A stretch of DNA of 64,000 nt from Klebsiella phage vB_KpnM_Tauntaun_ER47. Positions within the stretch are counted from its first letter, which is position 1. Each line of letters begins with the position of its first letter. Shown one piece after another: positions 26,037 through 26,729 of this stretch. A program made the translations under genes and the position numbers. The notes under the pieces are model-generated. The model was given only the letters and a program-made list of their open reading frames with translations. It was not told the origin of the DNA and searched no databases. The stretch lies in the sequence record PP738783.1. One strand, given 5' to 3'.

Positions 26037-26066
26037 GGTGGAGTAGGGAAACTTACTCCACCTTTT
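26037..26066 (+). terminator. Rho-independent terminator after gene 24 (GGTGGAGTAgggaaacTTACTCCACC + TTTT).
   Basis: 9-bp perfect stem plus a T-run. It marks the end of the late structural operon. Confidence 0.75.
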
Positions 26067-26069
26067 AAT

Positions 26070-26290
26070 AATTATTATAATTAATATTAAATTAGATCTT
26101 GAATTTATAAATGATTTATGATAAAATTTATTAATTATAATTATTATAGATCAAATAATTTTTGAAATCAAGTAAAAATAAATTTGATTTTATTAATTAG
26201 ATCATGTATAATTATTCTTTTAATAATATATTATATTAGATCAAATAAAATTTGACTACAAATTAATATAGTATATTATAGATCAACTGG
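26070..26290 (+). promoter_or_regulatory. AT-rich (~20% GC) repeat region with three tandem sigma70-type (T4 early-like) promoters upstream of uvsY. Possible origin-like element.
   Basis: TTGAAT-17-TAAAAT (26099-26127). TTGATT-17-TATAAT (26184-26212). TTGACT-16/17-TATTAT/ATTATA (26252-26280). A ~30-bp direct repeat T(T/A)ATTATAGATCAAATAA(T/A)(T/A)TTTGA(A/C) occurs at 26144 and 26229, and (T)TAGATC units recur five times. Confidence 0.5.
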
Positions 26291-26309
26291 GTAAATTGGT
26301 GAGTATGTT

Positions 26310-26729
26310 ATGAGTTTGAAATTAGAAGATCTGCAAAATGAACTTGAGAAGGATATGCTGATAGATCCCCTCAAGTTGCAATCAGAATCAGCGGATATCC
26401 CGAAGATTTGGGCTAAATGGCTTCGATACCATTCAAACGCTAAGAAAAAATTGATCCAACTTCATGCGAAAAAAGAAGCTGATGTGAAGGATCGTATGTT
26501 GTACTACACCGGAAGGCATGACAAAGAAATGTGCGAAGTGGTGTATACTGGGACTACTGAAATTAAAATCGCGATCGCTGGGGATCCGAAAATTGTAGAA
26601 ACCAACAAGCTGATCCAGTATTATGACATGGTGGTAGATTTCACCAGTAAAGCACTGGATATCGTCAAAAACAAAGGATACTCTATCAAAAACATGTTGG
26701 AGATCCGTAAATTAGAAAGTGGTGCATAA
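26310..26729 (+). CDS. uvsY: UvsY recombination mediator.
   Basis: 139 aa. LEDLQ.EL.KD..ID..KLQ.E.A......KWL..HS..KK... and the C-terminal K..G(Y/F)(S/A)IK...(E/D).R..E.G motifs align with recalled T4 UvsY (137 aa). Confidence 0.85.
   Translation: MSLKLEDLQNELEKDMLIDPLKLQSESADIPKIWAKWLRYHSNAKKKLIQLHAKKEADVKDRMLYYTGRHDKEMCEVVYTGTTEIKIAIAGDPKIVETNKLIQYYDMVVDFTSKALDIVKNKGYSIKNMLEIRKLESGA

Follow-up and report, generated by a model that had tools for sequence, protein, structure and literature searches.

How does a T4-like phage without a detectable MotA arrange the expression of uvsY, and does the DNA in front of this gene also serve to start replication? The question is raised by the 304-bp spacer that separates gene 24, the late gene for the capsid vertex protein, from uvsY, the gene for the recombination mediator, in Klebsiella phage vB_KpnM_Tauntaun_ER47, a T4-like phage of the genus Slopekvirus. 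The DNA analyzed was a stretch of 64,000 nucleotides from sequence record PP738783.1, which we call the window; all positions are those of the window unless another record is named. An earlier note, made from the letters of the window, had described the spacer as a repeat-containing, AT-rich array of early-type promoters that could double as a replication origin.

We find that the spacer holds a terminator and one or more sigma70 promoters for uvsY, a conclusion that is well supported and in part already annotated, and that most of it consists of an AT-rich, GATC-studded island, here called island C, which belongs to a family of three (Table 1). The new point is this set of three paralogous islands, matched in RB43-like phages by another element at the same positions; the literature searched yielded no account of either repeat family. 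The overall reading that we put first, a terminator, early promoter(s) and a probable origin combined, is a tentative one, and we infer the origin role by analogy with T4.

Terminator, island and promoters ahead of uvsY

Directly downstream of gene 24 lies a hairpin that folds with -23.3 kcal/mol (z = -5.95) and that is annotated as a terminator in four relatives, KP15, KP27, Miro, and Matisse. Judged by its sequence, it is an intrinsic terminator of the late 23-24 transcripts. A simple pattern scan for terminators missed this hairpin and folding detected it; its place between the end of gene 24 and uvsY bears out the earlier description of uvsY as lying directly after a gene 24 terminator.

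From the hairpin to the uvsY start codon the DNA is very AT-rich, as the earlier note had said: 26063-26309 stands at 13% GC and is the lowest-GC bin of the 64-kb window. For scans at the level of the whole genome, the genome of the relative vB_KpnM_Earwig_ER32 was stitched to the window, and in this stitched genome 26063-26162 is the least stable 100-bp duplex (z = 6.3). Five TAGATC units begin at 26093, 26147, 26198, 26237, and 26279, all on the plus strand and within 192 bp. The count of TAGATC across the whole window (26) is at chance level. When the island was shuffled 5000 times with its dinucleotides kept, a shuffle held 0.13 units on average and 3 at most, so that the five same-strand (T)TAGATC units, each containing a GATC, were reached in none of them. 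GATC itself occurs five times against 0.40 expected, at spacings of 54, 51, 39, and 42 bp. Ten of the 23 G/C bases in the island core lie inside GATC, and the rest are mostly the G or C of TTGA motifs that resemble -35 elements. Unit 1 is invariant in 12 of 12 aligned Slopekvirus sequences, and its junction with the -35 of promoter P1, GATCTTGAAT, recurs in island B. A 30-bp direct repeat had also been claimed; it proves to be an imperfect 41-nt repeat (76% identity), and in addition an exact 13-mer, TATTATAGATCAA, is present twice.

Other functions were considered for the island. Coding potential was rejected, the open reading frames (ORFs) being only 21-32 amino acids long and AT-rich, and the small "hypothetical proteins" that some records annotate there look spurious. 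A scan of the spacer against Rfam gave nothing relevant at E <= 1. Sites for integration host factor (WATCAANNNNTTR) and DnaA boxes in the island gave no good match by eye only, with no formal test. The shift in GC skew at the island, a possible sign of an origin, is uninformative because the skew merely tracks gene orientation around uvsW.

Among the promoter-like sequences of the island, P3 lies nearest to uvsY. With A-rich, UP-like DNA ahead of its -35, P3 reads AAAATTTGACT. From the end of its -10 to the uvsY ATG there are 30 nt, with the Shine-Dalgarno-like GGTGAG in between, at the place where a ribosome-binding site is annotated in Miro and Matisse. P3 is invariant in all 12 aligned Slopekvirus sequences, is annotated as a promoter in the GenBank record of KP27, and has a counterpart ahead of uvsY in RB43 and in GAP161, where the AAATTTGACT decamer, which covers -35 and UP, is again followed by a 16-bp spacer. 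The predicted drive of uvsY by a sigma70-type promoter, P3, is thus well supported, and P1 and P2 are plausible as additional uvsY starts.

The earlier note had seen three tandem near-consensus promoters here. Three matches do lie on the plus strand, but two equally good ones lie on the minus strand, and all five score 9-10 of 12. Judged by pattern alone their excess is modest: matches of at least 10/12 number four against 0.98 expected (P = 0.017). A tandem array of three is plausible, though more than the sequence can prove, and the island is bidirectional. What was called a perfect TTGATT-17-TATAAT (P2) is perfect in its -10 and in its spacing but matches in only 4/6 positions of the -35. 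The minus-strand module C1 faces P1, and the two predicted starts, inferred from the hexamer positions, nearly coincide (~26134 on the plus and ~26136 on the minus strand). Both P1 and C1 read into DNA of 7-13% GC, and C1 is directed at the tail of gene 24, a direction in which there is nothing to be expressed.

The absence of a MotA box, also noted earlier, is confirmed: there is no TGCTT between 25325 and 26649. This lack is no peculiarity but is to be expected, because this phage has no detectable motA or asiA and the RB43 group has no middle-mode promoters. Homologues of T4 MotA and AsiA were sought in the stitched genome with tblastn and none was found (E > 1; the UvsY control gave 8e-31), and RB43 has been reported to lack motA and middle promoters (Nolan et al. 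2006, PMC1524935). The coordinate of the RB43 early promoter was sought in the supplement to that paper and was not obtained. A canonical late promoter for uvsY was rejected too, exact TATAAATA being absent from the island, where only TATAAATG occurs, at 26106. The T4 logic of an early uvsY and a late uvsW is kept, because the spacer has no exact late promoter and TATAAATA lies upstream of uvsW.

Three islands and a second element at the same junctions

Island C has two paralogues elsewhere in the genome, islands A and B, which were read from Earwig_ER32 (99.9% identical). The three are the three lowest-GC bins and the least stable duplex windows of the stitched genome. Each carries 5-10 GATC sites and 5-6 TAGATC/GATCTA units, with close GATC pairs at 5-14 bp in A and B. 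Pairwise BLAST among them gives E values down to 3e-14, and in most of the Slopekvirus genomes listed by BLAST the islands are found at three places per record. What they share is a module, CTTGAnn-N13-GATC-TATAAT followed by ~25 nt of AT and then TTTTATCAWAAA, with one copy in A, two in tandem in B, and one, C1, in C. When five modules from the three islands were aligned, the invariant columns were CTTGA of the -35 and TAnAAT of the -10, which is the pattern that selection on real promoters would give. Promoter matches with a GATC abutting the -10 number four in the whole genome, all of them in the islands, and the KP27 annotation places promoters in islands B and C.

Natural isolates, compared with the window at loci L016, L009, and L012, indicate which parts of island C are dispensable. 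Roth23 has a 36-bp deletion (window ~26134-26169) that takes out TAGATC unit 2 and removes the C1 -10 together with most of the C1 -35. In Matisse and Snake a G-to-T change destroys the GATC of unit 3 and the P2 -10 is TAAAAT in place of TATAAT (26200 and 26209), with a 5-bp insertion in addition, and KP27 has a 9-bp duplication near 26075. C1, GATC 2, and GATC 3 are lost in such isolates and are therefore dispensable.

Outside Slopekvirus, BLAST with the island returned essentially only Slopekvirus-type records, a few of them named for other hosts; a match named "W8-3" was rejected as a non-Slopekvirus homologue, being a partial Slopekvirus record. When IMG/VR was scanned for exact 18-mers of the island, one Slopekvirus contig (L042) came up; the other contigs are probably chance AT-rich matches.

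Those who assemble such genomes should note that many assemblies break in these elements. Ten records from nine phiKp_* isolates (LC7684xx) end in island B or C; contigs of 35.07 kb run exactly from island B to island C, and the places concerned are window 26140-26191, island B, and loci L027 and L030. IMG/VR contigs of 142 and 144 kb, from the Slopekvirus and RB43 lineages, begin inside the 24|uvsY element. Such breaks are likely caused by AT-driven loss of coverage or by the repeats themselves.

The same three junctions are occupied by another repeated element in Pseudotevenvirus. The 24|uvsY spacer of RB43 is not an AT island; it consists of a structured repeat of ~130 bp and then the uvsY promoter. 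This repeat occurs at three or more places in most of the Pseudotevenvirus records listed; in RB43 the places are the junctions rnh|55, 3|ORF200w (also phrog_7322), and 24|uvsY. Within RB43 the cores are 96-100% identical between copies, and for B and C the figure is 100% over 58 nt. The AT-rich loop TATATTTTATATATAGAG does not vary from lineage to lineage, two divergent IMG/VR contigs included, and the flanking 6-8-bp stem covaries (AACTACAT/ATGTAGTT, TGTACTGT/ACAGTACA, ATGTCTA/TAGACAT, and ATGTCC/GGACAT). The arms on the outside, GAGCGAAGCGA and CACGAACGAAGTGAGTG, have the look of binding sites; their order is swapped in RB16, a change that would not be compatible with a simple hairpin. The outward promoters for the neighboring genes sit outside the element.

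Set beside the islands, the RB43-type element is alike in its three junctions, its AT-rich center, and the AAATTTGACT-16-TATAAT uvsY promoter that follows it. It differs in having 31-33% GC, inverted arms of the GAGCGAAGCGA type, the covarying 6-8-bp stem, and the invariant loop, and in having no detectable homology to the islands beyond short ACTACA/TGTAG and TATAGA strings. The presence of different repeated elements at the same three positions in two genera argues that these positions carry a cis function beyond ordinary expression. In two divergent IMG/VR lineages, whose UvsY is 71-74% identical, an ORF of ~36 amino acids that is rich in cysteine (MKIIKIESDWSCKHCGG...) lies between the conserved promoter and uvsY (L032:2383-2493 and L033:2389-2493, approximate positions); it is absent from Slopekvirus and RB43.

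One should not confuse the islands with PeSLs (promoter-early stem-loop elements), the dispersed units of RB49, phi1, and other T4-like phages that likewise combine a terminator hairpin with strong sigma70-type promoters and AT-rich upstream DNA (PMC2839356, PMC4122927). PeSLs differ in being compact, with GGGG...CCCC stems and many copies, and in flanking ORFans in hyperplastic regions, whereas the islands are three only, bidirectional, GATC-rich, and between core genes. The phage has PeSL-like units of its own: its ordinary early promoters sit in a G/C-rich hairpin (AAAAAGCCCTTGACTTCGGTCGGGGGCTTTT), not in AT islands, and have no GATC. In the repeat AAAAGCCCTTGACTTCGGTCGGGGGCTTTT, a G/C-rich hairpin carries the -35 TTGACT in its loop, and TATATT comes after it; six copies are found in the genome, two of them in the window (44917-44946 on the plus and 62138-62167 on the minus strand), and this repeat appears to be the generic early promoter-terminator cassette of the phage. 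Membership of island C in the PeSLs was rejected, both on layout, P3 being ~190 bp and P1 36 bp away from the hairpin, which does not form a compact unit with them, and on distribution, the islands numbering three only, all between core genes, with a sequence unrelated to the PeSL-like units of the same phage.

Possible roles: promoter cluster, recombination scar, timing switch or origin

T4 offers the obvious comparison. Its oriF is annotated as a rep_origin at 115321, 6 bp inside uvsY, whose transcript serves as primer; the two others, oriG and oriE, are located within gene 34, at 2.2 kb from rnh, and within gene 5, at 3.4 kb from gene 3, respectively. According to Kreuzer and Brister (PMC3016281), oriF and oriG need only a promoter and an A+T-rich unwinding element, with no particular sequence; oriE has an early promoter and direct repeats; all three are near strand-switch regions; and UvsW, the product of a late promoter, unwinds origin R-loops.

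Island C resembles oriF and oriG in that it ends at the uvsY ATG, so that the uvsY transcript would be the primer, and in that DNA rich in AT and easy to melt comes after a promoter. As at oriF, uvsW is convergent with uvsY and has a late promoter upstream. The island differs in that its promoter is of the sigma70 early type and not MotA-dependent, in a phage without motA or asiA, and in that its AT tract lies upstream of the gene and extends over ~250 bp, whereas that of oriF lies inside the gene and measures ~50 bp. A MotA-dependent middle promoter, as in the oriF class, is thus not found in island C, but the case of T4 oriE shows that a promoter of the early kind can take its place. Moreover, the T4 origins share no motif, whereas the islands are GATC-studded and form a three-copy sequence family. 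The island is like oriE in its early-mode promoter and its short direct repeats; the primer RNA of oriE is antisense to a late gene, as the C1 transcript would be to gene 24, and island B lies in the same 3-2-4-53-5 neighborhood. It is unlike oriE in its repeats: the iterons are evenly spaced 12-nt repeats in gene 5, whereas the (T)TAGATC units of the island measure 6-7 nt, are intergenic, and follow each other on one strand at irregular distances of 39-54 bp, with units 2 and 3 dispensable.

The reading that includes an origin can be put as follows. The hairpin would end the late transcripts, and promoters for host sigma70 would fire early, P3 reading into uvsY and uvsY.-2, probably aided by P1 and P2; this drive would replace the MotA-dependent middle promoter of T4. 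The islands would most likely act like T4 oriF(uvsY), the early transcript entering the unstable AT-rich DNA, staying annealed there as an R-loop, and priming leading-strand synthesis, until late-expressed UvsW removes the R-loops. Dam methylation might in addition, as a pure hypothesis, make the firing of promoter or origin depend on earlier replication of the DNA.

This last suggestion rests on the GATC sites, each of which could be methylated by an enzyme of the phage. A Dam methylase has been reported in all Kp15virus members (PMC5219037). The window encodes a Dam-family enzyme, which could methylate the island sites. Three DNA methyltransferase-like genes are found in the genome, this one, a Dcm-type C5 methylase, and a weakly matching N6-methylase-like protein, the further methyltransferase loci being at L017:18009-18791 and L018:25359-26282 of Earwig_ER32. 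The host has Dam as well. In four modules a GATC directly adjoins the -10; P1 and B2 each have one next to the -35, and P3 has one in its start region. This fixed place in promoter cores makes methylation-dependent promoter or origin activity a reasonable hypothesis. Clusters of Dam sites are familiar from the 13-mers of Escherichia coli oriC, which begin with GATCT, from the GATC heptamers of P1 oriR, and, among Dam-sensitive promoters, from pIN of IS10. The island resembles these, and no more than that, in that its GATC sites lie in an AT-rich unwinding region and overlap the edges of -10 and -35 elements, and in that its strings AGATCT and GATCTA are similar to the way the 13-mers of oriC begin; the spacing in island C is unsuited to SeqA pairs. 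We know of no T4-type phage that uses DnaA or SeqA.

Several points weigh against this combined reading. The literature searched holds no transcript, R-loop, or replication data for Slopekvirus, and nothing relevant was found there on RB43 origins or repeats or on Slopekvirus promoters or transcriptomes. Promoter matches of at least 9/12 are not in excess in island C (6 against 4.6 expected in shuffles, P = 0.31). The loss of C1, GATC 2, and GATC 3 in natural isolates counts against it too, although redundancy among origins would allow such loss. A SeqA-type arrangement does not fit island C, since SeqA bridges pairs of sites on one helix face up to a limit of ~31 bp and the spacings here are 39-54 bp. 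Islands A and B lie between divergent units that need strong bidirectional promoters anyway, and stacked UP elements could be all there is to the AT-richness. With oriG and oriE of T4 the agreement is only regional (2-3.5 kb), and the position of the islands is not independent evidence, because these are strand-switch regions in both phages. Finally, islands A and B come from the 99.9% identical relative and not from the window itself.

The main competitor takes the islands for clusters of strong early sigma70 promoters with AT-rich UP elements, joined at C by a terminator and sited where, amid late genes, early or divergent transcription units begin. Duplication of promoter modules would account for their low GC and their similarity, and they would have no role in replication; we consider this possible, if on the doubtful side. 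It accounts well for module conservation that peaks at the -35 and -10, for islands A and B between divergent genes (rnh<-|->55 and 3<-|->ORF), for the promoters that the KP27 annotators called in B and C, and for the dispensable parts of island C, and A- or AT-rich upstream DNA is what early promoters of T4-like phages possess in any case, as A-rich UP elements or, in PeSLs, as AT-rich upstream regions (PMC1524935, PMC2839356). It is strained by the best-conserved module of island C, C1, which aims at the end of gene 24 and has no gene ahead of it, by the different build of the ordinary early promoters of this phage, and by the RB43-like element, which occupies the same junctions and is itself no promoter, with separate outward promoters flanking it. 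It also fails to explain why 10 of 23 G/C bases should fall in GATC.

Far less probable, in our judgment, is that the islands and the RB43 element are PeSL-like recombination cassettes or scars at the breakpoints from which the RB43-type topology arose, kept alike by gene conversion and acting mainly in modular shuffling and rearrangement instead of in regulation or replication. Island A does lie at a synteny breakpoint (rnh|34 in T4 against rnh|55 here), as does island C (24|rnlB and uvsY|25 in T4 against 24|uvsY here); likeness is far greater among the copies of one genome than from genus to genus, to the extent of the identical RB43 B/C cores; PeSLs mediate such exchanges in RB49 and phi1 (PMC2839356); and assemblies break at the repeats. 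But the islands are unrelated to the PeSL-like repeats of the phage, the same junctions are kept in at least two diverged genera and more than 160 genomes, and recombination between direct copies 35-65 kb apart would delete essential genes. The kept junctions, with the covarying stem and invariant loop of the RB43 type, indicate selection on the element and not a passive scar. We give an equally small chance to the GATC array being a timing switch with no origin function, read by Dam/SeqA or by a phage DNA-binding protein, which would turn these promoters on or off by methylation state, for example by distinguishing virion-methylated from newly replicated DNA. Its appeal lies in the strong clustering of GATC and its contact with the -10 in four island-type modules, in the Dam-family gene of the phage, and in the GATC found in the uvsY promoter spacer of RB43, GAP161, and divergent IMG/VR lineages alike. 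The wide spacing in island C and the viable isolates without GATC units 2 and 3 speak against it, and such a switch is compatible with an origin role, of which it may be one layer.

A more specific form of the origin reading would make the three islands the Slopekvirus origins, MotA-independent R-loop origins with early promoters that are Dam-gated through GATC at the -10/-35 edges, fire on the methylated infecting genome, and are silenced after replication; the unrelated iteron-plus-stem-loop repeats of RB43-like phages would be the equivalent origins in that genus, position having been conserved among T4-like phages, T4 oriF at uvsY included, while sequence and control were replaced by lineage. 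In this full form we hold the proposal to be unlikely.

Gene order, neighboring features and significance

Coordinates are collected in Table 1. The region 24700-27500 of the window is 99.9% identical to Earwig_ER32 and 97-99% identical to PMBT1, KP15, KP27, Miro, and Matisse. Two statements of the earlier note on gene order had to be dropped. It held that uvsY is inverted relative to the uvsW block and co-oriented with uvsW in T4; the T4 order is 24(+), rnlB to 24.3(-), hoc(-), inh(-), segE(+), uvsW(+), uvsY.-2(-), uvsY.-1(-), uvsY(-), 25(-), in which uvsW and uvsY are convergent, just as in the window. A uvsY-specific inversion was rejected on the strength of this convergent T4 pair and of RB43, whose gene order here is that of the window. 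It also held that hoc and inh are absent, and PHROG matches place both beyond uvsW. Because uvsW and uvsY are convergent in both phages and inh and hoc lie on the far side of uvsW, it is the whole hoc-inh-uvsW-uvsY block that is flipped relative to gene 24. This "RB43-type topology" has already been described and was noted for KP15 (Petrov et al. 2010, PMC2993671).

The uvsY product is 37% identical to T4 UvsY (tblastn, E = 8e-31), and uvsY.-2 is apparently co-transcribed with uvsY. Gene 24 is named capsid vertex protein in the annotation of PMBT1, KP15, and KP27. Exact copies of TATAAATA in the window number ten, nine of them on the plus strand. The homing endonuclease gene between genes 23 and 24 encodes a DNA-binding domain of the I-TevI type; PMBT1 has no gene there, and T4 has segD at this junction, on the strand opposite to that of the GIY-YIG gene of the window. 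The Earwig_ER32 record, PP738774, is ~616 bp longer than the window somewhere within window 80-24700.

Table 1. Features of the spacer between gene 24 and uvsY, of the two other islands and the RB43-type element, and of neighboring genes
Feature	Position	Strand or junction	Remarks
Intrinsic-terminator hairpin, late 23-24 transcripts	26036-26063	+	12-bp stem, GAAA loop, then TTTTAATAATT
Spacer, gene 24 to uvsY	26006-26309		304 bp
Island C	26063-26309	24/uvsY	247 bp, 13% GC, three-copy island family; 5 GATC
TAGATC unit 1	26093-26098	+	Part of AGATCT; abuts P1 -35 (GATCTTGAAT)
P1, promoter-like	26099-26127	+	TTGAAT-17-TAAAAT; -10 preceded at two bases by TG; homologue in island B is promoter B2
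C1, promoter module	26143-26171	-	TTGATT-N13-GATC-TATAAT; points to gene 24; contains TAGATC unit 2 (26147-26152)
P2, promoter-like	26184-26212	+	TTGATT-17-TATAAT; TAGATC unit 3 (26198-26203) in spacer
Promoter-like	26230-26258	-	TAGTCA-17-TATAAT; overlaps TAGATC unit 4 (26237-26242); annotated promoter in KP27
P3, putative proximal uvsY promoter	26252-26279	+	AAATTTGACT-16-TATTAT (-35 TTGACT); TAGATC unit 5 (26279-26284) in discriminator/start region
Shine-Dalgarno-like GGTGAG	26298-26303	+	6 nt ahead of uvsY ATG
Island A	Earwig_ER32 ~33.25-33.52 kb (L017:33217-33520)	rnh(-)/gene 55(+)	9 GATC
Island B	Earwig_ER32 ~98.8-99.15 kb (L018:48785-49153)	gene 3(-)/phrog_7322 ORF(+)	10 GATC
RB43 element copies	L003:4058-4235, L020:7574-7735, L021:13663-13850		Also L006, L007, L008, L029, L032, L033, L035
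gp23	22394-23962	+	
GIY-YIG homing endonuclease	24048-24683	+	Between genes 23 and 24
Gene 24 (gp24, capsid vertex protein, late gene)	24716-26005	+	Pfam Gp23 family, E = 6e-93
uvsY (recombination mediator)	26310-26729	+	Pfam UvsY, E = 2e-37
uvsY.-2 homologue (DUF2685)	26729-26905	+	Pfam DUF2685; phrog_1043; RB43 annotation
uvsW.1	27235-27468	-	Pfam UvsW-1
uvsW	27477-28976	-	Pfam UvsW_N and helicase domains; convergent with uvsY
Exact T4-type late promoter TATAAATA	29007-29014	-	31 nt upstream of uvsW GTG start
inh	29050-29670	+	phrog_1051, E = 4e-63
Hoc-like genes	30712-31245 and 31256-31531	+	phrog_1149, phrog_14282; PMBT1 and RB43 annotation
Dam-family N6-adenine DNA methyltransferase	40823-41674	+	Pfam MethyltransfD12, E = 2e-34; TIGR00571 dam 149 bits (cut-off 115)

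To our knowledge, replication origins have been mapped in T4 only among the T4-like phages, where they have no common motif, and nobody has been able to predict them in the hundreds of T4-like phages that have been sequenced. Should the islands prove to be merely promoter clusters, the result is an ordinary one. The islands probably also explain the repeated assembly breaks in these phages, and the early promoters and origins of Slopekviruses, which are widely used candidates for Klebsiella therapy, matter for their engineering. The island family turns the earlier idea of an origin into a concrete, testable hypothesis, stronger than could be seen from the window alone. If the origin role is true, a recognizable three-copy element would provide the first sequence-defined origin candidates outside T4, with candidate sites at conserved junctions in two genera, one of them the 5' end of uvsY as in T4 oriF, and it would give a handle on the timing, in phages that lack MotA, of the change from origin-dependent replication to the recombination-dependent mode.

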